Assembly: GCF_041886205.1 (NCBI RefSeq) | Contig: NZ_CP169029.1 | Strand: one strand, 5' to 3' | DNA length: 64,000 nucleotides | Source of the DNA: Escherichia coli | Lineage (GTDB): Bacteria; Pseudomonadota; Gammaproteobacteria; Enterobacterales; Enterobacteriaceae | Made by a program: the position numbers and the translations under genes | Shown: positions 11,151-53,166 of the stretch, piece by piece | Layout of the letters: each line of letters starts with the position of its first letter | Position numbering within the stretch: the first letter of the stretch is position 1 | Notes under the pieces: model-generated | What the model was told of the DNA's origin: nothing | Database searches by the model: none | Seen by the model: the letters and a program-made list of their open reading frames with translations, nothing else

Positions 11151-11155
11151 TATGA

Positions 11156-13920: not shown

Positions 13921-13928
13921 AATAAAAC

Positions 13929-28358: not shown

Positions 28359-31300
28359 ATGCCAATTATTAATAAAAAGTATCAAGAGCTTCAGTTAACA
28401 GATGAGTACATTACCGATCCACTGCTCATGGCCCTAGCCTGGAAGAAAAGCCATCACTACATACGTACCACAAATTGGTATGCTGACAACTTTGAACTAG
28501 ACCTGTCGGCTTTGGACCTAATGCAGCACTGTAAAGATTGGGTCAAGAGAATGCAGGACAAAAAAGAATTTAAATTTTCAGAGCTACAACTTGTTCCTGT
28601 ACCAAAAGCCTGTAAATGGGAGTTTAAGACTGTCGAAAATAAGGTTCTATGGCAACCTTGTGATGAAAAAGAACTTACCCTACGCCCCCTTGCCCATATA
28701 CCCATAGCTGAACAAACCATCATGACATTAGTCATGATGTGCCTAGCCAATACAATAGAAACCAAGCAAGGAAACCCAGACACCAGCTATGACATCGTCC
28801 ACCAGAAAGGTATCGTCAATTACGGAAATAGACTTTATTGTCAGTATATTGACGATAAAGCAGAGCACAGCTTCGGTGCAACAGTGACATATAGTAAATA
28901 CTTCACTGATTATCGGAAATTTTTAAATAGGCCTTATCATTTTGCGTCAAAAGCGCAAGGTGAAATTTCGCCGGACGAAGCCGTTTACATCATAGAACTA
29001 GATCTTGCGAAGTTTTTCGATTTAGTAAACAGGAAGACTCTAATTCAAAAGATAAAAAACCATATCAGTGAGTCAATAAACAATAAAGAAAACCCACTCG
29101 CCAATCATTTATTTAAATGTTTTGCAAACTGGGACTGGACTGCATCTAGCATAAAAAATTATGACATATGCAAGTCAGACGAAGTAACAGAAATACCAAA
29201 AGGCATCCCTCAAGGATTGGTTGCAGCAGGGTTTCTATCAAATATTTACTTACTTGAATTAGATCAATTCTTGCATAATAAAATTAACACAGACATAACT
29301 GATGACATTAAATTTGTTGATTACTGTCGATATGTCGATGACATGCGATTTGTGGTTAAGGTTAAAAAATCAAAAAATAATAATACCGCATTCATAAATG
29401 ATGTAATAACCAATCTTCTTAAAAATGAGATAGATAATCTTGGACTGATAATTAATCCTAAAAAAACAAAAGTAGAAATTTTTAGAGGCAAATCCGCAGG
29501 CATCTCGCGTAGCTTGGAAAACATCCAGACCAGATTAAGCGGCCCAATATCAATGGATAGCGCCAACGAACAACTTGGGCATCTTGAGTCATTATTAAGT
29601 CTGACAAAAACCGATTTTGAACCACCGAAAAATGGTAAATCAAATAGATTAGCTGAGATTGAAAAAGACCGTTTCGATGTCAGGGAGGACACTCTTAAGC
29701 GCTTTTCTGCCAATAAAATCAGTAAGATACTAAAAGAGTTAAGACATTTCATCTCGCAGGATATAGATACTGATGGGGAGGTTATTGCCGGGGAATGGGA
29801 TTATCTGCAAGAACGTTTGGCACGGCGTTTTATTGTCTGTTGGAGCCATGACCCGTCACTGGCACTGCTACTCAAGAAAGGGCTGGAACTTTTCCCTGAT
29901 CCTAAGCTATTAGACCCTATACTTGAACAGCTTTGCTCACTCATTGAAAGCGATAATGAAAAACAAAGTGCAGTAGCTACTTATTGCCTTGCTGAAATAT
30001 TTCGACATTCAGCAATGACTATTCATAAAAAAGACACCTATGCATTCCCTGCACAAGCCAATGTGGATGGGTACTTTGAAAAAATACAACATTGCGCCGC
30101 GACATTCATTAATAAGCGCAGCGCCTCTGACAACGAAACTTGGAACCTGTTAATTAATCAGGCTAGTTTTCTGTTGCTTGTGCGTTTAGATAATACATTA
30201 GAAAAAAATGGCACTGATGCCAGGCATGATCTTATCTTAAAACTGGCATCAGGCTTTAGAACAATTACACTTCCCACTAAAATGGATAGCAAGACTATAG
30301 CCTCATGTATTTTGTTGGCTAGTCAATTAGTTAAAGATAACAAACCATTTATTCGCTCCTGCGCTTCTTTGTGCGAAAGAATTTATGACAAAGAACACGT
30401 CATAAAATTGAAGAAAATAGTTAGCATAATATCACATCAAAACTTATCATTGTTTAAATCCTTAGTTTATCATTCACGACCTTTACAACAGAAGTGGCTA
30501 AACTCAGACTCCGTGAAAATAATAATTAATGAATGCCATATAGATATACAACCTTTGGCGACTTCTTTAGGCATGATAAAAAGTAGTCACTCATTACTTA
30601 GAATCATATCAAGACCTGATAACCCATTTGCCAATGAGATAATGGCATTAAAACTGATGCAAGCCCTTTTATTGGACAGGATTGTTTGCCTGGATAATAA
30701 AAAAGATTATCAAATAAGTGTAGCAAACACCAAAGTGACGTTTCATAACTACTCCAACCCTCCAACATCGAATGTCTTCGATGCAGGAATGGATATGGAT
30801 GCAAAATTATTCAAATCATCGGGATGGGTCGATTCTATTTTCACGGATGATGCAGACACTCAAATATTGTATAGAGTTGCCATGTGCATCCGTTCAGTAC
30901 TACTCGGCAAACAAGACTGGACAGATTTTGGTCAAGCAATTTCCCCCAAACAGGGTTATCGGGGTATTAAAACTAGTAGAGACAAACGTCAATTGGGGAT
31001 GATGACAACACCTGAGTCCATTGCCGGTGAGAACTCTCAGGTTTCTGGTTGGCTTACCACACTCTTATCCAAGTTGCTTGCCTGGCCGGGAATTTCAGTG
31101 GGTGATAATGGATATCAATGGCCAGCAATTTTTACAGTAGATGCTGTCAGAAAACTAGTTGATGCTCGGCTGAGTAAACTTAAGCAGGATTACTGCAAAC
31201 TATCAGGAACTCCGGGACTTACAGAAAAAATACAGTTCAACTGGTCTGACTCGAAAAAAGCCCTAACAGTTGCTATGGTCCAGTCAAAACTGCCTGCAAC

Positions 31301-32135
31301 GAAAGATTTTGTCAGCCATGGACTTCTTTTAAACTCCGCAAAGTATAGAGTGATTCATCGCAGACATGTTGCTGAAGTGGCTGATTTAGTTGTAAAACAC
31401 ACGCTTGCACAAAAAACAACTCAACGAACTCATGGTGAAAAAATAGAGAACATTGATTTAATAGTATGGCCTGAGCTCGCTGTACATAGTGACGATTTGG
31501 ATGTACTCATCGCCTTATCTAGAAAAACGAATGCAATCATATACTCGGGCCTGACATTTATTGAGCAACCTGGAATCAAAGGACCAAATAATTGTGCCGT
31601 TTGGATTGTCCCACCTAAAAGCAATAGCAGCCAGAAAGAAATGATAAGACTTCAAGGCAAGCATAATATGATGGAAGATGAGAAAGGCCGGGTTGAACCC
31701 TGGAGACCATACCAATTGATGCTTGAACTTGTTCACCCCCAATTTACTGATAAAAAAGGATTTGTTCTCACAGGCTCCATTTGTTATGACGCAACCGACA
31801 TCGCGCTAAGTGCAGATCTCAGGGATAAATCAAATGCTTATCTTGTAGCAGCATTAAACAGGGATGTTAATACATTCGATTCCATGGTTGAAGCACTGCA
31901 TTATCATATGTACCAGCATGTTGTGCTCGTTAACTCAGGGGAATTCGGAGGATCTTACGCTAAAGCACCTTACAAGGAGCCGTTTAATCGTTTGATTGCT
32001 CATGTTCATGGCAATGATCAGGTAGCTATAAGTACGTTTGAAATGAACATGTTTGATTTCCGTCGTGATAATATAGGAAAAAGTATGCAATCCGGGTTAG
32101 ATAAAAAAACTGCTCCTGCAGGAATCATAATGTAA
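28359..32135 (+). CDS. Reverse transcriptase-nitrilase fusion, defence-associated RT type 1 (UG1)-like
   Basis: RT motifs GIPQGLVAAGFLSNIYLLELD and YCRYVDDMRFVV (YVDD); C-terminal carbon-nitrogen hydrolase motifs IVWPELAV and LTGSICYDATD; start trimmed from the TTG-initiated ORF 28311 to ATG at 28359. Confidence 0.75.
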   Translation: MPIINKKYQELQLTDEYITDPLLMALAWKKSHHYIRTTNWYADNFELDLSALDLMQHCKDWVKRMQDKKEFKFSELQLVPVPKACKWEFKTVENKVLWQPCDEKELTLRPLAHIPIAEQTIMTLVMMCLANTIETKQGNPDTSYDIVHQKGIVNYGNRLYCQYIDDKAEHSFGATVTYSKYFTDYRKFLNRPYHFASKAQGEISPDEAVYIIELDLAKFFDLVNRKTLIQKIKNHISESINNKENPLANHLFKCFANWDWTASSIKNYDICKSDEVTEIPKGIPQGLVAAGFLSNIYLLELDQFLHNKINTDITDDIKFVDYCRYVDDMRFVVKVKKSKNNNTAFINDVITNLLKNEIDNLGLIINPKKTKVEIFRGKSAGISRSLENIQTRLSGPISMDSANEQLGHLESLLSLTKTDFEPPKNGKSNRLAEIEKDRFDVREDTLKRFSANKISKILKELRHFISQDIDTDGEVIAGEWDYLQERLARRFIVCWSHDPSLALLLKKGLELFPDPKLLDPILEQLCSLIESDNEKQSAVATYCLAEIFRHSAMTIHKKDTYAFPAQANVDGYFEKIQHCAATFINKRSASDNETWNLLINQASFLLLVRLDNTLEKNGTDARHDLILKLASGFRTITLPTKMDSKTIASCILLASQLVKDNKPFIRSCASLCERIYDKEHVIKLKKIVSIISHQNLSLFKSLVYHSRPLQQKWLNSDSVKIIINECHIDIQPLATSLGMIKSSHSLLRIISRPDNPFANEIMALKLMQALLLDRIVCLDNKKDYQISVANTKVTFHNYSNPPTSNVFDAGMDMDAKLFKSSGWVDSIFTDDADTQILYRVAMCIRSVLLGKQDWTDFGQAISPKQGYRGIKTSRDKRQLGMMTTPESIAGENSQVSGWLTTLLSKLLAWPGISVGDNGYQWPAIFTVDAVRKLVDARLSKLKQDYCKLSGTPGLTEKIQFNWSDSKKALTVAMVQSKLPATKDFVSHGLLLNSAKYRVIHRRHVAEVADLVVKHTLAQKTTQRTHGEKIENIDLIVWPELAVHSDDLDVLIALSRKTNAIIYSGLTFIEQPGIKGPNNCAVWIVPPKSNSSQKEMIRLQGKHNMMEDEKGRVEPWRPYQLMLELVHPQFTDKKGFVLTGSICYDATDIALSADLRDKSNAYLVAALNRDVNTFDSMVEALHYHMYQHVVLVNSGEFGGSYAKAPYKEPFNRLIAHVHGNDQVAISTFEMNMFDFRRDNIGKSMQSGLDKKTAPAGIIM

Positions 32136-32428: not shown

Positions 32429-33736
32429 CTATCTCTGCCCAAACAGGTTAACGACATTGTTTTCCTGCTGTTGCTGGTGGTTATTCACCCGAGACTCCCA
32501 GATCTCGAGAGCCTTACGCTTTTCAACCAGGTAATCGTAACGATCGTAGTGTTTAGAACTCACATCCTGTAGAGCATGGTTCTGAATGCGGTCACGCAGG
32601 TCTTTAGCAATACCCGCTTCGCCCATCAGGGTCTTACAGGTACGACGAATATCACGCGCAATAAAAGATGGGCTCAACGCAAAGTGTTGCCGGTAATAAA
32701 TGATGGCTTGTGCAAAGCTGTCTGTGCGTAGATGCTGTTCCGGTTTAATACGCTGCGGGAAGATGTAAGGACTCTGACTATGATTCTCAGCTTTCAACTT
32801 TTCGAGTATCTCAATGGCTGACTCAGTCAAAGGCACCAGATGATCCCTTTTATTTTTCGACACATCCGCCACTATCAATAACGTTTTTTCTTCCCAGTTA
32901 ACGGCATCCCAACGGCTGGAAACCAGTTCATGAGGCCGCTGGCCACCCGTATAGACACACAAGTTAAGCAATTGGCTGATTAACGGGCCGACCTTTGGTG
33001 CTTTAGGGAAATCCCCCATCAGTTGCTGCAACTCATCCAGCTTCAGCCAGTTTGTCCCTGCCTTCTCCGCTGCAGATTGTTTGGGTATGACACTCACTGG
33101 GTTCATTTGAAGCCCAAACATCACGTTCTGCTGGTGGTTTGCCGGATCGTTGTCAGCCTTCAACCCATAATTGAATGCTGCCATCAGATAAGAGCGAACA
33201 CGATTTGCTTCAACTGATGCGCCACGTTTAATAATGGTGGCCAGAATTTGTTTGATATGAGCGGGGATAACGTCACGCGCTTTCGTCGCTTTAGGTATAA
33301 ATGGATAGGTTTCTTTTTCCAGCCGGTACAAAACCTGTTGCCAGGTGCGTTTACCGTCTTCACGCATTTTGGTGGTGTAACCCAAAATGAGTTGCTCAAT
33401 GCTGCCTTTGAGCTGGTCTTCACGTTGTTGTTGTTCGGCAGAGAAAAGCTGCTCTGCGATTTCAGCTTTGGGGTCTTTCCCTTCTTTAAGAAGACCCGCA
33501 TGTTCTTTACATTGCTGTCTTGCCTGCGCGAGTGACAACTCTGGGAAACGGCCAAGCAGAATGAATTGCCGTTTTCCTTGCCAAAAATAACGATAGTAAA
33601 ATACTCGCTGACCCGATGGCTCAACTTTCACCCCTAATCGCCCTGCCCCACGCTCACCACTTTTATCCCATTCATAATAAGCAGTAGTCTTCGGCTTCAA
33701 GCCACTAATCATTGAGACAGTTAAATTATCAGCCAT
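32429..33736 (-). CDS. P4-type tyrosine integrase of the ileY island
   Basis: N-terminal arm-binding-like domain (MADNLTVSMISGLKPKTTAYYEWDKSG...RVFYYRYFWQGKRQ); start trimmed from ORF 33838 to ATG at 33736; adjacent to attR. Confidence 0.82.
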   Translation of the reverse strand: MADNLTVSMISGLKPKTTAYYEWDKSGERGAGRLGVKVEPSGQRVFYYRYFWQGKRQFILLGRFPELSLAQARQQCKEHAGLLKEGKDPKAEIAEQLFSAEQQQREDQLKGSIEQLILGYTTKMREDGKRTWQQVLYRLEKETYPFIPKATKARDVIPAHIKQILATIIKRGASVEANRVRSYLMAAFNYGLKADNDPANHQQNVMFGLQMNPVSVIPKQSAAEKAGTNWLKLDELQQLMGDFPKAPKVGPLISQLLNLCVYTGGQRPHELVSSRWDAVNWEEKTLLIVADVSKNKRDHLVPLTESAIEILEKLKAENHSQSPYIFPQRIKPEQHLRTDSFAQAIIYYRQHFALSPSFIARDIRRTCKTLMGEAGIAKDLRDRIQNHALQDVSSKHYDRYDYLVEKRKALEIWESRVNNHQQQQENNVVNLFGQR

Positions 33737-33758
33737 AGTATTTTTCAGTCCTTTGTTC

Positions 33759-33804
33759 GTTACGTCACCCAGTCTGATTCTGGGTGACGTAGTGGGTGAC
33801 GTAA
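33759..33804. repeat. Three GGGTGACGTA motifs (one inverted, two direct) upstream of the island integrase
   Basis: gttacgtcaccc ... tgggtgacgtagtgggtgacgtaa; same motif as 13977-14001. Confidence 0.45.
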
Positions 33805-33929
33805 GGATGATACTGAAGGTAAAAACGCAGAACAACATGAAACAACAACCAGCAAATAACCTACTGTTATTTATTAAATTTAATCTAACGTGAAAAAAGA
33901 TGCAAAATCATGAAACATGGATTTCATAT

Positions 33930-33976
33930 GACTCATAATCGCTTGGTCGCTGGTTCAAGTCCAGCAGGGGCCACCA
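33930..33976 (+). repeat. 47-bp direct repeat of the ileY 3' end (attR of the island)
   Basis: Identical to tRNA positions 13874-13920. Confidence 0.85.
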
Positions 33977-34731
33977 AATCATCATTCATGTATCAGGAAG
34001 AGTTAAGGGTACAAGGGGTACTCGATGGCGGTCTATATTTCACGATTAACGCCATTTCAAGGAAGAAGTGCGGTGGGTGGTTTCGAATGAGGGCTGGTGT
34101 TTTGGTACGTGGCATGCCACTGCAATGTATTTATCCATCAGTACTCATTCAAAAGTACCTGGAAAAAATGCCCGCTATGCCAAGCGGGCAAATTGCTTAC
34201 ATGTGGAATTAAGTAATTAACGATAAAGCCAGAGTATTATCATTTATCATGCCTCTTCATTTAATCAGGTTAATTACTCAAATCACTGAACTATTCTCTG
34301 TTCGCTTACTGATGATAAGTGAAGTGTCACAACCACGATTTGTATGTGGACCAATGCCGTAGAGTAAGGATGAAATGTCTCTGCCACGCATTAAACATCT
34401 ACTACTGACCAGAACACCCGCCGCAGGCAGATGAGTCTTGTGAGTATTACAGAAGCATGGCTATGCTCATTAACCAACTCTAATAGATATAAATTCCTAA
34501 CACTCGAAAAACGAATTTCACTAATAAGTCATAACGGGTGATTTTTATCATACAGCGAAATAACCTTTTGTTTATTAAATTTAACATTCTTGTGCTTATT
34601 TAATTAAAAATTCCATGCGTAGCATGTGAAACAGTTAATGTCAGCAAATGTCTCAAATGAGCGATTTTTTATAGTGACAAACAGTAATAACGTTAAAAAT
34701 AGCCATGAAGACATTAACTGAGGAATAGACA

Positions 34732-36081
34732 ATGTTAGTTAGTAAAAGCAACGAATTTAACACTAGCGCAGTTTTGGCTAGCAGGAATTATAATGAAAAC
34801 AATTCTTCCAACCCCATGGGGCTACTAGCTTATAGTATTTTAAATTTAATTTGTAAGGAAGCTGCCTCAGGGACGTACAACGGTGCTATTGAAATTTTAC
34901 AAAAAATGATGTCTGAATGTAAATATCAAGAAGGCAACGCCTTTGTCATTATGGGATCTGGAGAACAATTAAAACGTATTAAATATGATGTTGATGAAAA
35001 TAACTTAAAAGTATTCAACGTACACTTTAATAATAATGAAGAGTTAGTTACTGATGGTGAGCCTGACGTAGTATGTTTAAGCAAGCAGGAGTGGGAAAAT
35101 CTTCTCATTAAATTAAAACCGGAGATTAAAGAAAATGTGTTTTCTGAAAATAACAAATCATCGAGAGAAAATAATGTTGATCAGTATGTTCAATCCGCTA
35201 AAAGAAATGAACAGGCCCTTTTCGATAATATAATAAAAAGTGATTTTCATGTTGCTTCACTTCAGCCAGGTAGTACGCGTAGTGTTATTTCAGAAACGCC
35301 ACGAAATGTCTGTATGGAACCACGTAATTCCTATGAAACCAAAATAGATGAGATTTCATCTTTGTCAGAGTCAAAGGAACACTCCATAGATATTCAAGAA
35401 AAAACAGATGCGTTTGTGAATGAGTTCAAGGGGATATTATTTGATAAAAATGGAACGTCTTCAGAGTTTCTACTTAATTTTTATGAATGTTGCTATGAGT
35501 TTTTACCAAGAGCGCAGCCTCAGGATAAAATCGATAGCTATAATTCAGCACTGCAAGCTTTTTCCATCTTTTGTTCATCTACGTTGACACATAATAATAT
35601 AGGCTTTGATTTCAAATTATTTCCAGAAGTCAAGCTGTCTAGAGAACATCTTGAAACGGTATTCAAATACAAAAATGGCGATGATGTCCGGGAGATAGCC
35701 AAAATTAACATTACTCTCCAAAAAGAAGAGGGTGGTTTATATAATTTACGTGGATTAGATTTTAAGGGATGCTTCTTTTCTGGACAGAACTTCAGTAACT
35801 ATGATATTCAATATGTGAACTGGGGAACGTCATTGTTTGATCTTGATACTCCATGTATTTTTAATGCGCCTGCTTACAACAAGAGTAATGAAAAATCATT
35901 AGAACGCGTCAGCGAAAACGGTTTAAGTGGAGTCTTGTCTGATCGTAATAAAAAAATAAAACTCATCACGGGCGTGGCACCATTCGATGATATTTTATTT
36001 ATGGATGACGACTTTGATGATAGTTCCTCTGAGGATGATCCCGTTGAGAATAGTCCTGTTGTGACTAGTCCCCTTGTATAA
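34732..36081 (+). CDS. Hypothetical AT-rich protein (449 aa), possibly YpjC-like; acidic Ser/Asp-rich C-terminus
   Basis: Long clean ORF, low GC, Asn/Lys-rich; position equivalent to ypjC next to the ancestral ileY junction. Confidence 0.45.
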   Translation: MLVSKSNEFNTSAVLASRNYNENNSSNPMGLLAYSILNLICKEAASGTYNGAIEILQKMMSECKYQEGNAFVIMGSGEQLKRIKYDVDENNLKVFNVHFNNNEELVTDGEPDVVCLSKQEWENLLIKLKPEIKENVFSENNKSSRENNVDQYVQSAKRNEQALFDNIIKSDFHVASLQPGSTRSVISETPRNVCMEPRNSYETKIDEISSLSESKEHSIDIQEKTDAFVNEFKGILFDKNGTSSEFLLNFYECCYEFLPRAQPQDKIDSYNSALQAFSIFCSSTLTHNNIGFDFKLFPEVKLSREHLETVFKYKNGDDVREIAKINITLQKEEGGLYNLRGLDFKGCFFSGQNFSNYDIQYVNWGTSLFDLDTPCIFNAPAYNKSNEKSLERVSENGLSGVLSDRNKKIKLITGVAPFDDILFMDDDFDDSSSEDDPVENSPVVTSPLV

Positions 36082-36485
36082 AGTTCTAAAAGCAGTTTTC
36101 AATGATAAATAAATGGCTATTTTTACGAAGAGATAATAACGTAGATTGAAACAATATGTATTATTGATTGAGTAAACGGGATTATTATTCACACTACATC
36201 CATTTTAGTGTCACTACCAAAGAAAAAGGGGCTACGTTTTCATGTAACCCCTTGATTTATTTGGTGGGCTGGCAGTGACTGAATTGGTGCTGTAATTGGT
36301 TGAAATATTTCATCTAATGTCTGGTTTAACTTTCCTTAGCTGCCTGAAAGTTTTTTGATCTCACCCAGCAATAACAGCGTTACGGTGCACCACGACTGAC
36401 TGAAGAACTGCGTGCTCAGGGTTACCACTTCAACGTAAAACCGTGGCAGGAGGTCCGGACTGAAAAAACTGCTCAGGACATTATC

Positions 36486-36612
36486 GGCAGGGTACGCACT
36501 GGTAGTCTGTAAACTGAACCGACTGGGGCGCAGTATGTGGCATCTTGTCGTGCTGTTGGAGGAGCTGTGCGAACGTGGTATTAACTTTCGTGCTCTGGCC
36601 CAATCTATATTT
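36486..36612 (+). pseudogene. pinH: Serine recombinase (Pin/Gin invertase family) fragment, pinH-like
   Basis: Translation ...[37 protein letters not shown] matches the resolvase catalytic-domain motif; no intact N- or C-terminus. Confidence 0.6.
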
Positions 36613-37007
36613 GCCCAACAATGGGGGGACGGAAGCTGTAAAAGTAAAACAATCTGCGATCTCAGAGTTATTGTGTGATTTTTATGTGAGCAGAAGATAT
36701 TCATCAGAAACGATTATGTAAATCATTTTATTTTGCCGACTGCCTGATTGTCGAAAGAAAAGAATACGCCCGGGTTTCCTGAATAGATTGACTTTTTTAT
36801 CCAACCACACTTCAGCGCACTGCGTTTAAAAAATGCCTCATTCTTATGCGGAATATCATCATTTCATCATGATGTCTTTGATGAGCGGTGAACACAATAC
36901 ACTTGCGCTGTCTCTTCAGGATGAATCCCCTGGTCTGGTGCCTGTGGGCTGATGTTGCAGCAAAGCTAAGGTCGCTTAAACGCTACTCAGTATTCACTTT
37001 TCAGAGG

Positions 37008-40000
37008 ATGAAATTTATGAACAGGACCAGTCCCTATTATTTTCGCCGCTCAGTACTTTCCTTATTGATATCTGCCCTGATATATGCTCCGCCCGGGATG
37101 GCGGCCTTTACTACTAATGTTATTGGTGTGGTAAATGATGAGACTGTAGATGGCAACCAACGAGTAGATGAACGAGGTACAACAAATAACACTCATATTA
37201 TCAACCATGGCCAGCAGAGTGTTTATGGCGGAGTATCTAATGGAAGTATTATTGAATCGGGTGGATATCAAGATGTTGGAAGGAATAACAATTATATGGG
37301 GCAGTCTAATAATACAACCATTAACGGAGGAAGACAGACAATTCATGACGGGGGCATTTCCACCGGTACGATAATCGACAGTGGCAATCAGGACGTTTAT
37401 ACAGGTGGTATCAGCAATGGAACGACAATTAAGGGTGGTAATTCACACATAAGTGGGGGGACTGCGAATGGAACAATCATTGATGGTGGCAGCCAACGAG
37501 TAACAACGCAGGGGCATGTTGACAGTACAACGATAAATAAGTCTGGCTCTCAGGACATCACGCAAGGAAGTCTGGCGACGAACACAATCATAAATGGTGG
37601 ACGACAGTATGTTGAACAGAGCACAGTAGGAACAACCACCATTAAAAATGGCGGTGAGCAAAGAGTATATGAAAGCCATGCGCTGGACACGACGATTGAA
37701 GGTGGAACTCAGTCTCTGAATAATAAGTCAACGGCAAAAAATACTCAGATCTATTCTGGTGGTACGCAAATTGTTGATAACACCAGCACCTCGGATGTTA
37801 TTGAAGTTTATTCCGGTGGCGTGCTTGATGTTAGTGGTGGTACGGCAACAAATGTTACCCAGCACGATGGTGCAATTTTAAAAACAAACACTAACGGTAC
37901 GACGGTGAACGGTACGAATAGTGAAGGTGCATTCTCCATCCACAATCACGTGGCAGACAATGTGTTGCTGGAAAACGGTGGTCATTTAGACATAAACGCA
38001 TATGGTTCGGCAAACAAGACTATTATCAAAGATAAAGGAACAATGTCAGTTTTAACCAATGCTAAAGCTGATGCGACCCGAATAGATAACGGCGGGGTAA
38101 TGGATGTTGCCGGAAACGCGACCAATACCATAATTAATGGTGGCACACAGAATATTAATAATTATGGCATAGCCACGGGAACCAATATCAACAGCGGAAC
38201 GCAAAATATCAAGAGCGGCGGGAAAGCTGACACGACAATTATATCCTCCGGGAGCCGGCAGGTTGTTGAGAAAGATGGTACGGCAACTGGCAGCAATATT
38301 AGCGCCGGAGGCTCGCTGATTGTCTATACCGGCGGTATTGCACATGGGGTTAACCAGGAGACGGGCAGTGCTTTAGTTGCCAACACGGGTGCAGGGACTG
38401 ATATCGAAGGATACAACAAGCTCTCTCACTTCACTATTACCGGAGGGGAGGCTAATTATGTTGTGCTGGAAAATACCGGCGAACTGACGGTAGTGGCTAA
38501 AACCTCGGCGAAAAATACTACCATTGATACTGGCGGTAAGCTGATTGTCCAGAAGGAGGCTAAAACAGATAGCACCAGACTTAATAATGGCGGCGTTCTG
38601 GAGGTTCAGGACGGTGGTGAGGCTAAGCATGTTGAGCAACAATCCGGCGGCGCATTAATTGCTTCCACGACCTCCGGAACACTTATCGAAGGAACCAACA
38701 GTTATGGTGATGCTTTCTACATCAGGAATTCAGAAGCTAAAAATGTAGTGCTGGAAAACGCTGGCTCATTAACAGTCGTCACTGGTTCCCGGGCAGTTGA
38801 TACGATTATTAATGCCAATGGCAAAATGGATGTTTATGGAAAAGATGTTGGCACTGTACTTAATAGTGCTGGCACCCAAACAATATATGCCAGTGCCACT
38901 TCTGATAAAGCAAATATCAAAGGTGGCAAGCAAACGGTATATGGTTTAGCCACTGAAGCAAATATCGAAAGTGGTGAACAAATTGTTGATGGTGGGTCAA
39001 CAGAGAAAACACACATCAATGGTGGCACGCAAATCGTTCAGAATTATGGTAAGGCAATCAATACCGATATCGTCTCTGGCCTACAACAAATTATGGCAAA
39101 CGGGACAGCGGAAGGTTCCATTATTAATGGGGGTTCACAGGTAGTTAATGAGGGCGGTCTGGCTGAAAACTCGGTGCTTAATGACGGCGGCACACTCGAT
39201 GTGCGGGAGAAAGGCAGCGCAACGGGGATACAGCAGAGTAGCCAGGGCGCTTTGGTTGCAACCACCAGGGCGACGCGGGTCACAGGAACACGCGCGGATG
39301 GCGTCGCGTTCAGCATCGAGCAGGGTGCGGCGAACAATATCCTGCTGGCAAATGGCGGCGTGTTAACCGTGGAGTCAGACACCTCTTCTGACAAAACACA
39401 GGTCAATATGGGCGGACGGGAGATCGTCAAAACAAAAGCCACTGCGACAGGCACGACGCTCACCGGCGGTGAACAAATTGTCGAGGGTGTGGCGAATGAG
39501 ACAACAATTAACGACGGCGGAATACAAACAGTTTCAGCTAACGGAGAGGCAATAAAAACAAAGATCAATGAAGGCGGTACGCTGACAGTCAACGATAATG
39601 GCAAAGCGACAGATATCGTCCAGAACAGCGGTGCCGCTCTCCAGACGAGCACGGCTAACGGTATTGAAATCAGCGGTACTCACCAGTACGGTACTTTTTC
39701 CATTTCCGGCAATTTAGCGACCAATATGTTGCTGGAAAATGGCGGTAATTTATTGGTATTAGCAGGTACCGAAGCTCGCGACTCCACGGTTGGCAAGGGT
39801 GGGGCAATGCAAAACCTGGGTCAGGACTCCGCCACAAAGGTTAACTCTGGCGGGCAATATACCCTTGGGCGGTCAAAAGATGAGTTTCAGGCTCTGGCCC
39901 GGGCAGAAGATCTCCAGGTCGCTGGCGGTACGGCAATCGTCTACGCAGGTACGCTGGCGGATGCATCGGTCAGTGGCGCGACAGGAAGCCTGTCGTTAAT

Positions 40001-41597
40001 GACGCCACGGGATAATGTTACGCCAGTTAAACTCGAAGGGGCGGTCCGGATTACCGATAGCGCGACATTGACTCTGGGAAATGGCGTCGATACCACGCTT
40101 GCCGACCTGACGGCTGCCAGCCGGGGCAGTGTCTGGCTTAACAGCAATAATTCCTGTGCAGGTACCAGCAACTGCGAATATAGAGTAAACAGTTTGCTAC
40201 TCAACGACGGTGATGTTTATTTGTCAGCACAAACAGCAGCGCCTGCCACAACTAACGGTATCTACAATACGCTGACAACCAATGAACTTTCCGGTAGCGG
40301 TAATTTCTACCTGCATACCAACGTTGCAGGCTCCCGGGGCGATCAACTGGTCGTCAACAACAACGCCACTGGTAATTTTAAAATCTTTGTTCAGGATACC
40401 GGCGTCAGCCCACAGTCTGACGACGCGATGACGCTGGTGAAAACAGGGGGAGGGGATGCTTCGTTTACGCTGGGCAATACCGGCGGTTTCGTTGATCTTG
40501 GGACCTATGAGTATGTCCTGAAAAGTGACGGCAACAGCAACTGGAACCTGACCAATGATGTCAAACCCAACCCGGACCCCATCCCAAATCCAAAGCCAGA
40601 CCCAAAACCCGATCCAAAGCCAGACCCAAATCCAAAACCAGACCCTACTCCCGATCCAACGCCGACACCCGTTCCGGAGAAACGCATTACGCCTTCTACG
40701 GCAGCCGTACTCAATATGGCAGCAACATTACCGTTGGTATTTGATGCTGAGCTAAACAGTATTCGCGAGCGGTTGAACATAATGAAAGCGAGTCCACACA
40801 ACAATAATGTCTGGGGGGCGACGTATAACACCCGTAATAATGTCACCACCGATGCGGGTGCCGGGTTTGAGCAGACGCTGACCGGAATGACAGTGGGGAT
40901 CGACAGCCGTAATGATATTCCTGAAGGAATTACCACGCTAGGCGCTTTTATGGGCTATTCCCATTCACATATCGGTTTTGATCGCGGAGGACATGGCAGT
41001 GTGGGCAGTTATTCTCTGGGCGGCTATGCCAGTTGGGAACATGAAAGTGGTTTCTATCTGGACGGTGTCGTGAAGCTGAACCGTTTTAAAAGTAACGTAG
41101 CAGGTAAAATGAGCAGCGGTGGAGCCGCCAATGGCAGTTACCACAGCAACGGGCTGGGCGGTCACATTGAAACCGGGATGCGATTTACCGATGGTAACTG
41201 GAACCTGACGCCGTATGCATCGTTAACGGGGTTCACCGCTGATAACCCCGAATATCATTTATCCAATGGCATGGAATCGAAATCAGTCGATACCCGCAGT
41301 ATATATCGTGAACTGGGTGCAACGCTGAGTTACAACATGCGTCTGGGGAACGGTATGGAAGTTGAGCCGTGGCTGAAGGCGGCTGTGCGCAAAGAATTTG
41401 TCGATGATAACCGGGTGAAGGTGAATAATGACGGTAATTTCGTCAATGATTTGTCGGGCAGACGTGGAATATACCAGGCAGGTATTAAAGCCTCATTCAG
41501 TAGTACGTTAAGCGGGCATCTCGGGGTGGGGTATAGCCATGGTGCCGGTGTGGAATCACCGTGGAACGCGGTGGCTGGTGTGAACTGGTCGTTCTGA
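37008..41597 (+). CDS. ypjA: AIDA-I-type autotransporter adhesin, YpjA-like
   Basis: Signal peptide (MKFMNRTSPYYFRRSVLSLLISALIYAPPGMAAF), long repetitive GG-x-Q/T beta-helix passenger, Pro-rich linker, C-terminal beta-barrel ending ...AGVNWSF; start trimmed from ORF 36888. Confidence 0.85.
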   Translation: MKFMNRTSPYYFRRSVLSLLISALIYAPPGMAAFTTNVIGVVNDETVDGNQRVDERGTTNNTHIINHGQQSVYGGVSNGSIIESGGYQDVGRNNNYMGQSNNTTINGGRQTIHDGGISTGTIIDSGNQDVYTGGISNGTTIKGGNSHISGGTANGTIIDGGSQRVTTQGHVDSTTINKSGSQDITQGSLATNTIINGGRQYVEQSTVGTTTIKNGGEQRVYESHALDTTIEGGTQSLNNKSTAKNTQIYSGGTQIVDNTSTSDVIEVYSGGVLDVSGGTATNVTQHDGAILKTNTNGTTVNGTNSEGAFSIHNHVADNVLLENGGHLDINAYGSANKTIIKDKGTMSVLTNAKADATRIDNGGVMDVAGNATNTIINGGTQNINNYGIATGTNINSGTQNIKSGGKADTTIISSGSRQVVEKDGTATGSNISAGGSLIVYTGGIAHGVNQETGSALVANTGAGTDIEGYNKLSHFTITGGEANYVVLENTGELTVVAKTSAKNTTIDTGGKLIVQKEAKTDSTRLNNGGVLEVQDGGEAKHVEQQSGGALIASTTSGTLIEGTNSYGDAFYIRNSEAKNVVLENAGSLTVVTGSRAVDTIINANGKMDVYGKDVGTVLNSAGTQTIYASATSDKANIKGGKQTVYGLATEANIESGEQIVDGGSTEKTHINGGTQIVQNYGKAINTDIVSGLQQIMANGTAEGSIINGGSQVVNEGGLAENSVLNDGGTLDVREKGSATGIQQSSQGALVATTRATRVTGTRADGVAFSIEQGAANNILLANGGVLTVESDTSSDKTQVNMGGREIVKTKATATGTTLTGGEQIVEGVANETTINDGGIQTVSANGEAIKTKINEGGTLTVNDNGKATDIVQNSGAALQTSTANGIEISGTHQYGTFSISGNLATNMLLENGGNLLVLAGTEARDSTVGKGGAMQNLGQDSATKVNSGGQYTLGRSKDEFQALARAEDLQVAGGTAIVYAGTLADASVSGATGSLSLMTPRDNVTPVKLEGAVRITDSATLTLGNGVDTTLADLTAASRGSVWLNSNNSCAGTSNCEYRVNSLLLNDGDVYLSAQTAAPATTNGIYNTLTTNELSGSGNFYLHTNVAGSRGDQLVVNNNATGNFKIFVQDTGVSPQSDDAMTLVKTGGGDASFTLGNTGGFVDLGTYEYVLKSDGNSNWNLTNDVKPNPDPIPNPKPDPKPDPKPDPNPKPDPTPDPTPTPVPEKRITPSTAAVLNMAATLPLVFDAELNSIRERLNIMKASPHNNNVWGATYNTRNNVTTDAGAGFEQTLTGMTVGIDSRNDIPEGITTLGAFMGYSHSHIGFDRGGHGSVGSYSLGGYASWEHESGFYLDGVVKLNRFKSNVAGKMSSGGAANGSYHSNGLGGHIETGMRFTDGNWNLTPYASLTGFTADNPEYHLSNGMESKSVDTRSIYRELGATLSYNMRLGNGMEVEPWLKAAVRKEFVDDNRVKVNNDGNFVNDLSGRRGIYQAGIKASFSSTLSGHLGVGYSHGAGVESPWNAVAGVNWSF
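40561..40672 (+). repeat. Tandem short repeats encoding the (P-D/N/K-P) linker inside ypjA
   Basis: cccaaatccaaagccagacccaaaacccgatccaaagccagacccaaatccaaaaccagaccc, encoding PNPDPIPNPKPDPKPDPKPDPNPKPDPTPDPTPTP. Confidence 0.7.
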
Positions 41598-41609
41598 CCA
41601 TCAACGAAA

Positions 41610-41640
41610 AAGCCCACATCTGTGGGCTTTCATGTTACCA
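41610..41640 (+). terminator. Intrinsic terminator after ypjA
   Basis: Hairpin aaagcccacatctgtgggcttt immediately after the stop. Confidence 0.55.
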
Positions 41641-41825
41641 GGAGCCGCGGCTCTTTTGCGTATCCTGTTTTGTCTCCTCACCGTCTGGTCGGTGTCCTGC
41701 TGAGGCTGCTAACTTCCTGTTTTTGTTGGTGTTGTCCTTACACCGTCCAATCATGATTGGGCTGGCGGAGTCTGAATAACATTTGCAACATAATGTTTTT
41801 ATTGTTTATTTTCCAATTCAACTTT

Positions 41826-41854
41826 CATTGGTATACCTAAGCGTATACCAATGG
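41826..41854. repeat. Palindromic GGTATAC-containing repeat at the left end of the P4-like element
   Basis: cattggtatacctaagcgtataccaatgg; close copy of cgtatacctaaacgtataccaat at 53200-53222. Confidence 0.5.
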
Positions 41855-41932
41855 CGATTTGTTGCAATGATTCCTGTGGTTAAGCGAACTTGTTGTTGAA
41901 TAGCTCACATCAAGAAAAAAACTTTTTTTACG

Positions 41933-42034
41933 GAAAACTGTTCACACTGTTCACTCGCCATTATTTGTCTTTAATTTCAATGTGATATACGGTGAATAGT
42001 CCGTGAACAGTGAACACTTTACTGTTCACTTTCC
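41933..42034. promoter_or_regulatory. Cluster of TGTTCAC/GTGAACA octamer iterons downstream of the primase gene, P4 ori-like
   Basis: ctgttcacactgttcac ... ggtgaatagtccgtgaacagtgaacactttactgttcac; resembles P4 type I iterons bound by alpha. Confidence 0.5.
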
Positions 42035-42079
42035 GGGATTTCAGGTAAAAAAAGACCGGCTGATGCCGGTCCGGGTAGG

Positions 42080-44413
42080 TTATGTCGCGGTGGTTTCGTC
42101 GCACCGGGGCAGCCAGTCGGCGTTGCTTTCCTCCCTGAGCGCAAGGTTCGTCTGCATCCCCTGATTTGTTCGCCGCCTGGCGTAATTCAGCCCGTACTCT
42201 TTCAGCATCGATGACAGCCCTTTGCCGAACATGGTCAGGCTGAGGGTGTTCTTGTAGCCGTGCGCCTCCATGTAAACCAGATAGGCGTGATACAGGTACA
42301 GGCGCGGCTGTCGCGGGATGATATTCGCATTCCCCATGTACATACCGTCAGGCTCGGGCAGCGCCTCCAGATAGCCACAAAAATCGAATGTCGGGTCAGC
42401 GTCGCGCTTGATGCTGAGTGCCTCGTCGGAGTTCTGCTGCGACTGGAGCAGTGTGCGCGCGGTCATCGGGTCGCTGAACGTCTGCATAAGCTGACGCACG
42501 ATGACGGCCAGCTCGCGGGCAATTTTATCTTTCAGCTTCGGGTCACGCTCCTCCGGGGCAATCTGTTCCGGGAAGTGCATTATCACCCGGCGACGCGACA
42601 CGCCGCCGCTGCGGTCGGTGAAGCGCATCGGATTGTTGTTTACGGCCAGTATCACCGCCGGAATATGGGTGGAGTACGCATCGCGGTATTTCGGGTCAAC
42701 CGAGACCGCATCCCCGCCGGTGATGGCCTTGAGTCCTGCCCCGTCACCGCTCCATTTCTCCTGGTCAGGCAGACGTATCAGCGAGAAGCCAATCAGCGCC
42801 GCGCGCTCGCGGGGGGATTCCAGCGTTTCGATAGTCGCTGACGTGGCGTTATCTTCCCCGGCGAGCATGGTCGCTATTTCGGCCAGAATACTTTTCCCGC
42901 TGCCACCGGGACCGGTCACTTCGAGGAAGAGCTGCCAGTCGTAGCGGTTCGCCAGCACCATAAACAGCGCGGCGAGTATCACGTCACGTTTATCGGCACG
43001 CGAACCGGCGGCGCGGTCGAGCCAGCGCCAGAAATTCGGCGCGTGCGTCTCCAGCGTTTCCCCCTCCACCGGCGGGGTGAAATCCACGTCGCACAGGGTG
43101 CGCAGCCAGTGCGTTTTGCTGTGCGGGCTGAATATACCGGTACTGGTATCAAGCACGCCGTTGCGAAAGCCAATCAGCCGCCGTGGCGGGGCATCCTGCT
43201 GCGGAATAATCAGTTTCAGGGTGTCCACCACCGAGGCAATTTTCCCCGACGAAAACGGGGCGCGCAGACGCTGGAACAGCCCGGCCACGTCGCGCGCAAA
43301 GTCTGACGGCGGAATGATTTTCCATATACCGGCTTCATAGCGGGACAGGAGCTGCCCGTTCGCATCCACCGCCAGCGCTTCGCCGTAATGCTCATGCACC
43401 CGCATGGCTTTCTCACTGGTGCTCATGGCGGTAAATTCCGCCTCGCTCATGGTAGAGAAAGGGCTTTCAGCCGGTGGCCGGATGGCGTCATACATGGCTT
43501 TACGCGTGGCCTCCCCACCGTGCTGTGTATACGCATCATTCCAGTCACCGAACACCGGCGGCAGGGCGACCACGCCCTCACAGGACTCTGCGGCCGCAGA
43601 CGCTTTGGTCTGGCCGTCGCCGTTAAGGTCACGGTCGGCGGCAATGACAATCCGGCAGGCCGGGTATTTGTGACGGGCAAGGCTCGCCAGAGAAAGGAGG
43701 TTCACCGACGACAGCGCCACCATGACGGTTTCGCCGGTCAGGTGATGCACGGTGAGCGCGGTCGCGTAGCCCTCCGCTATCCACAGCCGTTTTCCCGCCT
43801 CTTTTTTCCCGTCGAGAATATGACATGTCCCTTTTACCTGCCCCCCTTTCAGGGTGCGCTTGAGACCGTCCGCGTTAATGAGCTGGACGTTAACCAGTGC
43901 GCCGCTATCGTCATACAGCGGGACAACCACATCCCCGGCACGGTACGTCACACCGCCGGTTTTGTGCATGGCCGTCAGTACCTGACATTCCCGGCCGGGA
44001 AAGCCCTTGCGGGTGAGGTAGGCGTTGCCGGTGGCCGGTTGGGTTTTCTCCATCAGTCTGGCGGCCAGCGCGGCCGCCGCTTTGCGGTCGGCCTCCGTTT
44101 CAGCGTCTGCGGCCGCAGTCACCGCCGGGGATACCGGAGGCAGGTTGCCGGTCACGGCGTTCACCTTCCCGGCCGCCTCTGACGGGGTCACGCCGAACAC
44201 TTTCTCAACCAGTTTCAGACCGTCCCCCGCGCCGCACTGGTTACAGAACCACGTCCCGCGTCCCTCCTTATCGTCAAAGCGAAAGCGGTCGGAGCCGCCA
44301 CACACCGGACAGGCCTGATGACGGTTTTTGATGACCGTTACCCCCAGCGCCGGGAGAATGCGCGGCCAGTGGCCGCACGCCTGTTTCACGGTGTCCGTTA
44401 CGTTCATTTTCAT
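42080..44413 (-). CDS. P4 alpha-type primase-helicase
   Basis: 777 aa; N-terminal zinc-binding primase region CPVCGGSDRFRFDDKEGRGTWFCNQCG; Walker A-like GPGGSGKS. Confidence 0.85.
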   Translation of the reverse strand: MKMNVTDTVKQACGHWPRILPALGVTVIKNRHQACPVCGGSDRFRFDDKEGRGTWFCNQCGAGDGLKLVEKVFGVTPSEAAGKVNAVTGNLPPVSPAVTAAADAETEADRKAAAALAARLMEKTQPATGNAYLTRKGFPGRECQVLTAMHKTGGVTYRAGDVVVPLYDDSGALVNVQLINADGLKRTLKGGQVKGTCHILDGKKEAGKRLWIAEGYATALTVHHLTGETVMVALSSVNLLSLASLARHKYPACRIVIAADRDLNGDGQTKASAAAESCEGVVALPPVFGDWNDAYTQHGGEATRKAMYDAIRPPAESPFSTMSEAEFTAMSTSEKAMRVHEHYGEALAVDANGQLLSRYEAGIWKIIPPSDFARDVAGLFQRLRAPFSSGKIASVVDTLKLIIPQQDAPPRRLIGFRNGVLDTSTGIFSPHSKTHWLRTLCDVDFTPPVEGETLETHAPNFWRWLDRAAGSRADKRDVILAALFMVLANRYDWQLFLEVTGPGGSGKSILAEIATMLAGEDNATSATIETLESPRERAALIGFSLIRLPDQEKWSGDGAGLKAITGGDAVSVDPKYRDAYSTHIPAVILAVNNNPMRFTDRSGGVSRRRVIMHFPEQIAPEERDPKLKDKIARELAVIVRQLMQTFSDPMTARTLLQSQQNSDEALSIKRDADPTFDFCGYLEALPEPDGMYMGNANIIPRQPRLYLYHAYLVYMEAHGYKNTLSLTMFGKGLSSMLKEYGLNYARRRTNQGMQTNLALREESNADWLPRCDETTAT

Positions 44414-44424
44414 GGTGTTCTCCC

Positions 44425-44745
44425 TCAGTGCAGCGCCGGTGCGGTGATATGACGGGCGCAGAGTTCATCCATCACGGCCAGCCCGAGAAAGGACAGCGAC
44501 GGCGCGGCCTTGAGTGGTCCGGCTTCCATTAAATCTTCGAGCAGGGCACAGGCAATCTGACGGCCTTTTTCCTCGCCATGCTGGCGCAGGTAGAAGCCCT
44601 CCAGCTCGGTCGCAATGGCGCTTTCCAGCGTACTGAGCGTGAGCTGCGGGTAGCGGTGCTGACGTTCGCACAGGGTCAGCCATGCACAGGCCACGGCGCG
44701 GCGATAGAGCGCGGCGCGTAAGACGGGCGTTAATGGCTTTTTCAT
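44425..44745 (-). CDS. Hypothetical protein, 106 aa (same size and position as P4 orf106)
   Basis: ORF immediately upstream of the primase, start overlapping the upstream ORF stop. Confidence 0.45.
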
Positions 44746-45047
44746 ACGTTGCGCTCCCCGGCCAGCCAGCGCTGATTGCAGCGTTCGACCACACCTTCAA
44801 GCCGGGCGGTCATGAGGTAAATCACCGAGGTGAGCTGTAGCTGCTGCGCCGGATTGTGGCGCAAAGAGGTGCAGTCCTGCACCTGCATCAGTTCGCCGAC
44901 GAGCTGGCCGACGTTGCGAAGATGTTCGAGGCATTCGAGGTCTGCCCGGCTGATGGTGGGCTGGTTTATATTCTGCGACCGTTCCGTACTGTTAACAGGC
45001 ATTATTTCGTCTCCTGAGGACGTGCGTATCCCTGCGCAGATACGCAC
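44742..45047 (-). CDS. Hypothetical P4-like small protein, 101 aa
   Basis: Translationally coupled to neighbouring ORFs in the primase-upstream cluster. Confidence 0.45.
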
Positions 45048-45073
45048 ATTTTATTTTGGGGTGTCGTTTTTAA

Positions 45074-45523
45074 TTACAGATAACGGCGGTAGCTGTTATC
45101 CGGTTTTATTTCCGTTTCCAGCCTGAAATTATTCCGCCATTTATGCGCCACCGGCGCCGGGCGTTTAACCGGGGGAATATCATCAGGATAGTTATCGATA
45201 TTCCGCGCCCGGTATTGCTGTAATGCCGGGTCGGCCGCTATTTCGCGTAATACGGCGTGGCGGTTTTCAGGGTTGCGCTTAAATACATCGGGATGCTCAC
45301 AGGTAAAGTCCCGCAAAAAACGACTGAGCGGAATTTCTGCCATACGGCCACCGGCAATAATACGAATGAGGATGGTGTAGGTGCGCCGGTAAGGGTTCCA
45401 GACCAGCCCCGGACAGCGGTACGGCATATCCCACGGAATACCGTCGGCCAGCACGCCCGACACCACCACATCAGGAAATCCTGTACAGCGATATGTTTCG
45501 CCCGGCTGAGGGAAATCAAACAT
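45074..45523 (-). CDS. Hypothetical P4-like protein, about 149 aa
   Basis: ORF 45074-45565 trimmed to ATG at 45523, which overlaps the stop of the upstream small gene. Confidence 0.4.
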   Translation of the reverse strand: MFDFPQPGETYRCTGFPDVVVSGVLADGIPWDMPYRCPGLVWNPYRRTYTILIRIIAGGRMAEIPLSRFLRDFTCEHPDVFKRNPENRHAVLREIAADPALQQYRARNIDNYPDDIPPVKRPAPVAHKWRNNFRLETEIKPDNSYRRYL

Positions 45524-45815
45524 GGTGCTCCCCTCCGTTTCCCGACGTCGTGGCGAGAAAGTCACGGCACAGGCCTTTGGCTTTCAGCTCTTCCAGGACG
45601 TAGCTGACGTCCTCATGGATATAACTAAAAATCTGCGGCAGGTATAGCTGGTGTAAACCGTTCAGCTCACGGCGCAGCAAATCTCCACCGATGAACTGCG
45701 AGACGGCGCTGGCGCGATTGAGTTTATGGTACGCCTCAATGCTGAGGTGTTCCTGCATGGGGTTAAGGTCATCACGACGCGCTGAGATGGTCTGAGGGGT
45801 GTTTTTATTATGCAT
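45516..45815 (-). CDS. Hypothetical small protein, 99 aa
   Basis: ATG at 45815 preceded by a GGAGG RBS; the N-terminal part of the longer listed ORF is low-complexity and probably not translated. Confidence 0.4.
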
Positions 45816-46403
45816 GTGACACCTCCACAACCGGCAGACGGGCGGCAAGGGAAAGCACGTATTCCCGGACAAGGGTGCGGCGGGCGGCCAGCTCGTCACC
45901 GGCCACGGTGCGGAGCATACAGATACGGGGTTTACGGTCTGCACGACGGACGGCGGCAAACACAAAGACAAACTGAGGGTGTGACGGGGTGAGGGTCGTA
46001 GCCATAAGGCAACCTCCTTCGAGTAGCAAATTATTGCTATCGCCGGAGTTCTCACGCTCAGTGGCGATAGCCCAGACGGGGGTGAGAATACCGGCCTCGA
46101 AGAATACCGGCCAGCCCGAGGGCTGCCCCGCCTGAGCTACCATTGACATGACAGCATGATATGCGATTGCGGACAGGAGACACAAAGTGACGTCTGCACG
46201 ACGATCCGCACACCACGCCATTATCTGGCGCTCTGTGGCGTTAGTTGCGACACAAAAAAAGACGCATGGCGCGTCTGGTGTCGCCTTCGAGTTACTCGGG
46301 TTCTCACGCCCGGTTACCGATTTTGCGGCAACAGCAAAACTGTACCAGGAAACACACAACGGATGCAAGCCAGAAAAAGGGGCTTTGTGAAATCGGCTCT
46401 GAT

Positions 46404-46622
46404 TCATGCGTCGTATTTCCGGTTGCGGTGCGCGACACGTTCTTCCATCCATGCCGTGATTTCAGACTGTAGCCAGGCGACATTTTTACCCCCGAGGGAA
46501 ACCTGCGCCGGGAAAGCGTTACGGGCGATTAAATCGTAGAGCGTGGAGCGGGACAGGCCGCACTGATGAATGACTTCCGGGAGACGTAAAAAACGTTCCT
46601 GAGTCGGGGCTGAAACCGGCAT
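46404..46622 (-). CDS. alpA: AlpA-family transcriptional regulator of the P4-like element
   Basis: [49 protein letters not shown] matches the AlpA HTH family; start trimmed to MPVSAP. Confidence 0.7.
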
Positions 46623-46944
46623 CGGGTGCGCGGCAGTGGGGGACGGTGGTGCTGATGAAACTGTGTGCATAACGCTACCTCGTTAATATCCGCAGAGATC
46701 CGGACGTATCCGTCCGGTATCAGGTAGCGCTCTATTTTGTGAATATTTTTCTTCAATGCAACAGAGGCATGTTGTGTCGTGGAGCAGTTTTGTCTGTTAT
46801 TTAAGCAGCGACCTGAAAATATGAAAAATAATTGGCACATGACGCGCTGAGACGTTCATAAATCACAGTCAATTGATATCGCCTATCAATAGATAAAAAT
46901 ATAATTATTAAAACAATGACTCTCTAAAAGGAGCTTGCCGAAAC

Positions 46945-48261: not shown

Positions 48262-48277
48262 TTCAGGAGAAAAGACA

Positions 48278-53148: not shown

Positions 53149-53166
53149 TGTGGCCGCTCCTTCATG

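Follow-up and report, generated by a model that had tools for sequence, protein, structure and literature searches.

What is the 7.8 kb of DNA that lies between ileY and ssrA in an Escherichia coli chromosome in which an integrative element is present at each of these two sites? We considered this question in a stretch of 64,000 nucleotides (the window) from contig NZ_CP169029.1 of RefSeq assembly GCF_041886205.1, which runs in the reverse orientation to K-12 and in which the segment at 33980-41757 separates a 20-kb island at ileY from an 11.6-kb P4-like satellite at ssrA. A sequence-only reading had placed a ypjC-like gene, a fragment of the invertase gene pinH and the autotransporter gene ypjA here, at 34000-41780, and we find all three in the segment, with those boundaries correct to within about 25 bp. 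It had further proposed that the whole was the left-over end of a CP4-57-like prophage lacking an integrase of its own, and that together with its neighbours it made up a tandem array of three generations of mobile elements. We find that the segment is a resident, non-mobile spacer between the 3' ends of ileY and ssrA, and that it is probably a layered fossil bed, one layer of which would be the decayed right junction of a CP4-57-type element once integrated at ssrA. The earlier observation is confirmed by this analysis, and its interpretation is partly supported.

The candidate fossil junction at 36259-36301

The spacer is bounded on its left by the right-hand repeat of the ileY island (33930-33979) and on its right by the live right junction of the P4-like element (41758-41768, plus strand), where a damaged 3' fragment of ssrA, judged against the empty site, reads TTGG----GCTGGCGG. 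This junction was placed by aligning the window with the empty site and with the junctions of K-12 (at psaA) and wlxctx60; the empty site of strain LHM10-1 reads CATGATTGGTGGAGCTGGCGGGAGTTGAACC, the window CATGATTGG----GCTGGCGGAGTCTGAATAAC, and K-12 CATGATTGGTGG-GCTGGCGGAGTCTGAATTGG. It follows from the alignment that the P4-like element spans approximately 41769-53332 and has left at 41758-41768 an ssrA fragment with a 4-nt deletion, whereas the deletion at the live junction in K-12 is of 1 nt. The gene for transfer-messenger RNA (tmRNA), ssrA itself, was called by ARAGORN at 53333-53695 on the minus strand and forms the left junction of the element.

A search with the element-side junction motif gave a second site, at 36268, and extending it delimited what appears to be a fossil right junction at 36259-36301 (plus strand), in which the terminus of a CP4-57-type element comes after a degenerate 3' fragment of ssrA. 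When the window over these positions (TTTGGTGGGCTGGCAGTGACTGAATTGGTGCTGTAATTGGTTG) is aligned without gaps to K-12 psaA and the right end of CP4-57 (ATTGGTGGGCTGGCGGAGTCTGAATTGGTTGTGTAACTTGTTG), 35 of 43 bases are identical. No other place in the window matches the K-12 43-mer as well, the live junction agreeing with it at 31 of 43 positions, and over 200 shuffles the best match averaged 24.5 and did not exceed 29; BLAST of the fossil against the K-12 locus returns an E value of 3e-7. The ssrA fragment proper, TGGTGG-GCTGGCAG at 36262-36275, has the same one-base deletion, CGCCAGC-CCACCA, that is listed for CP4-57 in Table 1 of PMC10107115. Two substitutions are present in the core of the fossil. 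Past the CTGAAT that they share, the fossil agrees with CP4-57 at 14 of 19 bases and with the end of the P4-like element at only 6 of 19.

The strand and polarity of the fossil are those of the live junction, with the flank to the left and the element side toward ssrA, which is exactly what a tandem array at ssrA requires. There are two 3' fragments of ssrA in the same orientation, at 41758-41768 and 36262-36275, with foreign DNA between them and with ssrA at 53333, and no further relic of ssrA or ileY besides that at 36259 turned up in the segment when up to 3 mismatches were allowed or in short-word BLAST. Past the fossil ssrA fragment, at a distance of 8 nt, comes a strong terminator hairpin on the ssrA strand (36226-36253, minus), which can also be read directly in the sequence. 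K-12, 1303, D72 and a divergent genome (L011) have the fossil in conserved form, and it is present in 2,933 genomes; no feature lies beneath the match in any of the 45 cases listed.

The history that we favour would begin with a P4-type integrase recombining the attP of an element with the 3' end of ssrA, thereby displacing a damaged ssrA fragment to the far end of the element. The insertion of an insertion sequence (IS), along with deletions, would later have removed the integrase and nearly everything else, and the intact ssrA would then have served again as a target, for CP4-57 in K-12, for the P4-like satellite in this strain and for a P2-like prophage in a further genome, with nothing inserted there in many genomes. 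A more detailed version of this history seems to us about as easy to doubt as to accept, namely that the fossil is a second pseudo-ssrA, that integration of a CP4-57-type element at ssrA predates the divergence of the sampled E. coli, that the CP4-57 of K-12 is an outer layer, that ypjA lies within the older layer, having come as its cargo or having been copied as a cassette into its remains from the region between ymgJ and minE, and that the hairpin at 36226-36253 is the native terminator of ssrA. The carriers of the fossil, about 2,900 complete E. coli genomes, include both K-12 and O157:H7.

Layers of the spacer and their distribution

One colinear blastn alignment of 7,856 bp, at 96.5% identity, joins window positions 33930-41777 to the K-12 interval ileY-ypjC-ypjB-pinH-ypjA-psaA (b2647-b2652). 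The K-12 interval has the same ends, at ileY and at an ssrA fragment, and shares the pinH fragment and the fossil junction with the window, but differs in that ypjCB, intact in the window, is split into ypjC and ypjB, in that ileY is empty rather than occupied, and in that ssrA is occupied by CP4-57 rather than by a P4-like satellite. According to the K-12 annotation CP4-57 ends at psaA, before ypjA, and thus the corresponding segment lies outside CP4-57; the alignment from ssrA to ileY that had been proposed as a check bears out the colinearity, but does not assign the segment to that prophage.

At least 80% of the segment is present in 2,710 of 5,426 complete E. coli genomes. The junction of ileY with the segment is uninterrupted, meaning that ileY is empty, in 2,912 genomes, and the junction of ypjA with ssrA is likewise uninterrupted, with ssrA empty, in 1,393. 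Both sites are empty in strain 1303, where the order is glaH-ygaQ-ileY-ypjCB-pin fragment-ypjA-ssrA, and in strain LHM10-1 ssrA adjoins ypjA directly, with no element between them. The occupant of ssrA beside the segment may be CP4-57, a P4-like element, a P2/186-like prophage or nothing at all. The segment is independent of whatever occupies ileY or ssrA.

Four layers may be distinguished from ileY toward ssrA, the first of them being approximately 320 bp of DNA flanking ileY (33980-34298). In E. albertii the order of genes is ssrA, a truncated P4-type integrase gene, ykgR/ykgM/ykgO-like genes, a flank of about 320 bp, ileY, a ygaQ homologue (59% amino-acid identity) and glaH, and window positions 34074-34298 are 85% identical to the DNA beside ileY in that species (L014 9047-9273). 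No match to 34299-41757 was found in E. albertii, and everything between those positions appears, from these comparisons, to be specific to E. coli. Some E. coli genomes are also without the block. In strain K56-43-un, which we take to belong to phylogroup B2, glaH lies 0.68 kb from ssrA, and ygaQ, ileY, ypjCB, pinH and ypjA are absent; only 41607-41757, the 151 bp beside ssrA, is common to this strain and the window, and a 333-bp filler in the block-less genome has no convincing open reading frame and no similarity to the block. As E. albertii has ygaQ, ileY and the 320-bp flank, we regard these as ancestral and the block-less state as a deletion. Separate IS-mediated losses of ileY have been described in strains B and W (PMC3032704).

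The E. albertii locus has a relic of its own beside ssrA, where at L014 6988-7330 a P4-like arm with a terminator is followed by the first 30 or so codons of the integrase, ending in a stop codon, after which come the zinc-independent ribosomal protein paralogues (the ykgM/ykgO-like genes). This remnant would appear to be a different fossil at the same site in a sister species.

The second layer, which ends in the terminator, is ypjCB (34732-36081, plus strand), an intact gene of 35% G+C encoding 449 amino acids. The protein matches Pfam DUF5507 and DUF5508 and scores 939 bits against the NCBIfam family Ecoli_YpjCB (cut-off 650). All 120 of the 120 homologues among the matches listed are from E. 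coli. A search of 1.84 billion representative proteins gave 44 matches, amounting to one full-length cluster and otherwise almost entirely short fragments of 60-100% identity, and nothing beyond fragments of this same family was found there outside E. coli. Scanning species-representative genomes returned only two stray contigs, from a Planococcaceae metagenome-assembled genome and an Arthrobacter assembly, both of which we take to be E. coli contamination, although the negative is weak because the scan used peptides specific to this ypjCB allele. The gene is the fastest-diverging part of the segment, with 92.7% DNA identity to K-12 and indels, and its protein differs by about 14% between E. 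coli lineages while the adjoining DNA differs by 2-4%. An AlphaFold model (mean predicted local distance difference test score 44) is too poor for use; residues 340-378 give an impression, and only that, of a five-residue, pentapeptide-like periodicity. We conclude that ypjCB appears to be an orphan gene confined to E. coli, situated on the chromosomal (flank) side of the fossil.

If the fossil is the third layer, the fourth would be 5.5 kb of later-arrived or rearranged DNA on the ssrA side, made up of an IS3 fragment, the invertase fragment, the ypjA cassette and the 151-bp flank, and this DNA is probably the debris of older insertions. Over its first 380 bp or so, next to the fossil on the element side, it is a patchwork of very small internal fragments. 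Twenty-five codons at 36375-36449 (plus strand) appear to come from the interior of an IS3-family transposase, with matches to HTH_21 (E 5e-4) and transpos_IS3 (E 0.03) that both fall below the curated cut-offs. The pinH sequence, at about 36442-36609 (plus strand), is a dead internal fragment, of approximately 56 codons, from the gene of a DNA invertase of phage type. Of the 145 positions in the Resolvase domain it covers 48-102 alone (E 3.7e-10), and it has stop codons on both sides. Its DNA is 83-85% identical to annotated DNA invertase genes of Escherichia phages, including records named phage P2 and pro483, but unlike the phage tail-fibre invertases (Pin, Hin, Gin and Cin) it has neither the catalytic serine region nor the DNA-binding domain, and with its catalytic domain incomplete it does not qualify as a functional serine recombinase.

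The autotransporter gene ypjA (37017-41597, plus strand) is intact, a single open frame of 1526 amino acids with Pfam AIDA in 10 stretches, Pertactin and the Autotransporter beta-barrel, the last also recognized by TIGR01414, and it has what is expected of an AIDA-type autotransporter adhesin (YpjA/EhaD). YpjA has been described as a biofilm-associated autotransporter adhesin (PMC9289746). Together with its upstream region and a 39-codon open reading frame (36833-36952) it forms a cassette at 36637-41607 (plus strand), and the right end of this cassette, 41607, is the exact breakpoint seen in comparison with genomes lacking the block. Because 36276-41757 lies between the displaced ssrA fragment and the intact ssrA, this DNA, with its IS3 fragment, invertase fragment and ypjA, most likely entered through ssrA or was inserted afterwards into DNA that had done so. 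Everything between the fossil and ssrA would then have come by way of ssrA, and ypjA would have come with the old element or after it.

Native chromosome, prophage end or ssrA array

We had initially read the segment as plain chromosome that was never mobile, and dropped this on finding the fossil junction. A modified form of the idea, in which the segment is native chromosome and the 43-nt motif is a chance match or a one-off scar at a secondary site, uninformative as to how pinH and ypjA arrived, strikes us as rather unlikely, although it does explain part of the data. The segment is stable, with fixed ends, in some 2,700-2,900 genomes, there are genomes in which both sites are empty, the 151-bp flank is common to genomes without the block, and ypjA has a paralogous relic in the core genome. 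On the other hand, 35 of 43 matches stand against a shuffle maximum of 29, the fossil has the correct polarity and the specific one-base deletion of CP4-57, and fragments of an IS and a phage invertase lie directly on its element side. Nor does native ancestry sit well with the complete absence of 34299-41757 from E. albertii, or with an orphan gene of 35% G+C.

Several of our own results nevertheless weigh against the reading of the spacer as a fossil bed at ssrA. The likeness of the fossil to CP4-57 is confined to about 43 nt, no CP4-57 gene survives in the segment by blastn, and the fossil could be the scar of an insertion at a secondary site, or an element end that was translocated. At both ends, 36637-36987 (88%) and 41253-41607 (97%), the ypjA cassette matches an internally deleted autotransporter relic between ymgJ and minE (L013 4501-5203), and this relic, or at least a match of such a kind, is found in 5,423 of 5,426 genomes; having such a paralogous relic in the core genome, the cassette may have arrived by duplication or recombination and not as cargo of an element. 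The flank proximal to ssrA (41607-41757, 151 bp), which on the ssrA strand has the hairpin GCCCAC-N4-GTGGGC followed by T5, is 89% identical to the DNA adjoining ssrA in a block-less genome (L004). We considered this flank as an element arm and rejected it, as its alignments with the ssrA-proximal arms of CP4-57 and the P4-like element were about as good as those of shuffles (z = 1.3-1.6), while these two arms match each other at z = 17. Being shared with block-less genomes and without similarity to the arms, the 151 bp may be native flank and not an arm of the old element, and a native flank in this position is not predicted by a simple history of integration followed by decay.

The proposal that the whole of 34000-41780, with ypjC, pinH and ypjA, is one left-over end of a CP4-57-like prophage fares worse still, and we think it improbable. 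It draws on the position of the segment next to CP4-57 in K-12, on the recombinase fragment, on the low G+C content across ypjCB and on the presence of a CP4-57-type terminus. That terminus, however, is internal to the segment (at 36259) and has ypjCB to its flank side, and blastn of the window against the whole of K-12 CP4-57 finds no match within the segment, and so no homologue of alpA, yfjI/J, cbtA/cbeA or the other genes of that prophage. The 320 bp beside ileY is ancestral, being present in E. albertii, YpjCB has no relatives in mobile elements (those listed are all from E. coli), and no more distal ssrA fragment was found between ileY and ypjCB, either in searches that allowed 3 mismatches or in short-word BLAST. 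The closest thing to CP4-57 gene content in the window is a YfjJ-like protein, and it is located in the ileY island.

The absence of an integrase from the segment, on which the sequence-only reading had been right, is evident in three ways: the list of open reading frames has none of integrase size in 33980-41757 other than ypjCB and ypjA, Pfam finds no integrase among four open reading frames of the segment, and RefSeq annotates a recombinase fragment and no integrase in the identical wlxctx60 sequence. A search of Rfam over 33700-42100 found no RNA family. What would identify a CP4-57-type remnant is present in part, as a displaced ssrA fragment and a CP4-57-like terminus without the integrase and genes of CP4-57. 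The notion of an older CP4-57-like end left behind at ssrA is borne out by the fossil junction, with its 35 of 43 matches, and fails for ypjCB and the DNA to its left, which lie outside the fossil. It had been based on gene names known from K-12 and not on this junction, the evidence that actually supports an older element.

That ypjA and pinH belong to the current P4-like element, with its true right end beyond them, can be dismissed, as the right junction is at 41758-41768, ssrA abuts ypjA without any element in LHM10-1, 1303 and about 1,393 genomes, and the only other ssrA-like fragment is a degenerate one of CP4-57 type that occurs in genomes without the P4-like element. The segment thus lies outside both of the current elements, as had been supposed, and the arrangement that had been named as telling against that supposition is excluded. 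The array of three generations does not hold up, since it mixes two different sites, the tandem arrangement at ssrA being limited to the P4-like element and the fossil. These two most likely make up an array of two layers, to which the ileY island, inserted at another site, is unrelated.

The flanking elements and other arrays at ssrA

The elements on either side of the spacer are real integrative elements by their Pfam and PADLOC matches. The gene ileY (tRNA-Ile2, anticodon CAU; 13845-13920, plus strand) is called by ARAGORN as tRNA-Met (cat) and is colinear with ileY of K-12. Its 3' end forms the left copy of a 50-bp direct repeat (13874-13923, plus strand) that is 100% identical to the right copy at 33930-33979 (plus strand), the displaced ileY 3' fragment, which in genomes with an empty site occupies the position of the 3' end of the intact gene. 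Between the copies lies the island (13924-33929), with defence genes and other cargo: a YfjJ-like protein, McrBC-like proteins, a type I restriction-modification system (hsdRSM) and a Drt1a reverse transcriptase (28311-32135), a reverse transcriptase-nitrilase defence gene. A gene with the Pfam domains of a tyrosine integrase lies at the far end (32429-33838, minus strand), and arm-type repeats CTGGGTGACGTARTGGGTGACGTAA (repeat family D16) lie near both ends. With a repeat of the tRNA 3' end, an integrase and a site that is empty in 2,912 genomes, this is a tRNA-gene island, and its own perfect repeats make it a separate event at a different site from the insertions at ssrA. The sole complete genome that shares 72% of the island also has it at ileY. 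The Drt1a gene and the integrase region (28311-32135 and 32429-33838) are without a close match at the DNA level among complete E. coli genomes; in strain GDSC2227PM the remainder of the island is 100% identical, and IS1 truncates the island there. The integrase adjoins the displaced tRNA fragment, away from the intact tRNA gene, and a different ileY island in strain LHM10-1 has the same layout with the integrase at the far end.

The P4-like element (41769-53332) has, by Pfam, a primase-helicase (42080-44413, minus strand), Psu (48278-48853) and a P4-type integrase (51961-53148, minus strand), and with its insertion at a tRNA-like 3' end it has the makings of a P4-like satellite; a related element in wlxctx60 is annotated with sid, an Icd-like gene and derepression genes. 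In no genome does coverage of the P4-like element exceed 62%, and both flanking elements appear to be rare and recently acquired. Small deletions at ssrA junctions are known for P4-type integrases (Table 1 of PMC10107115), and the one-base deletion left by CP4-57 has been shown to inactivate tmRNA (PMC10107115). By analogy, were the P4-like element to excise from its junctions at 41758-41768 and 53333-53350, the tmRNA gene left behind, with 4 nt missing, would probably be defective. Between psu and the integrase, at 49105-51801, are genes for a protein of 526 amino acids with an LA2681-like HEPN domain (49105-50685) and for a 328-amino-acid protein without a family match. No PADLOC model matches either one, and they are possible candidates for uncharacterised defence cargo.

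Farther to the left, 8.6 kb at 2663-11253 stands where K-12 and the closest relatives have 10.2 kb (stpA through glaH and the end of ygaQ). It has no close match among the 5,426 complete E. coli genomes and no open reading frame above 190 amino acids, and it contains an (AC)7.5 microsatellite, with CpG at 0.59 of expectation and CA and TG at about 1.38. This DNA looks like eukaryotic, methylation-depleted sequence, and for that reason is probably not bacterial but a contaminant, a decoy that was inserted or a chimera created in assembly.

For the annotation of this neighbourhood, ypjA and pinH should be placed outside CP4-57 and outside any live element, behind what would be an old, unannotated ssrA scar. 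With the exact junctions given here, ileY and ssrA can each be compared with a defined "empty" and "occupied" reference when islands are called in E. coli genomes. The site at ssrA has been used repeatedly, and the fossil, if it is one, marks an insertion older than the divergence of the E. coli lineages sampled.

Arrays at ssrA in which the integrated elements have damaged attachment sites are said to have been described by Williams in 2003. The locus studied here differs from such arrays in that its inner member would have been reduced to fragments, without an integrase. It resembles them in having an intact ssrA followed by two co-oriented 3' fragments, each with a small deletion, and apparent element DNA in between, and as such it does not overturn the current understanding of ssrA but would add a new and well-delimited case of a known phenomenon.

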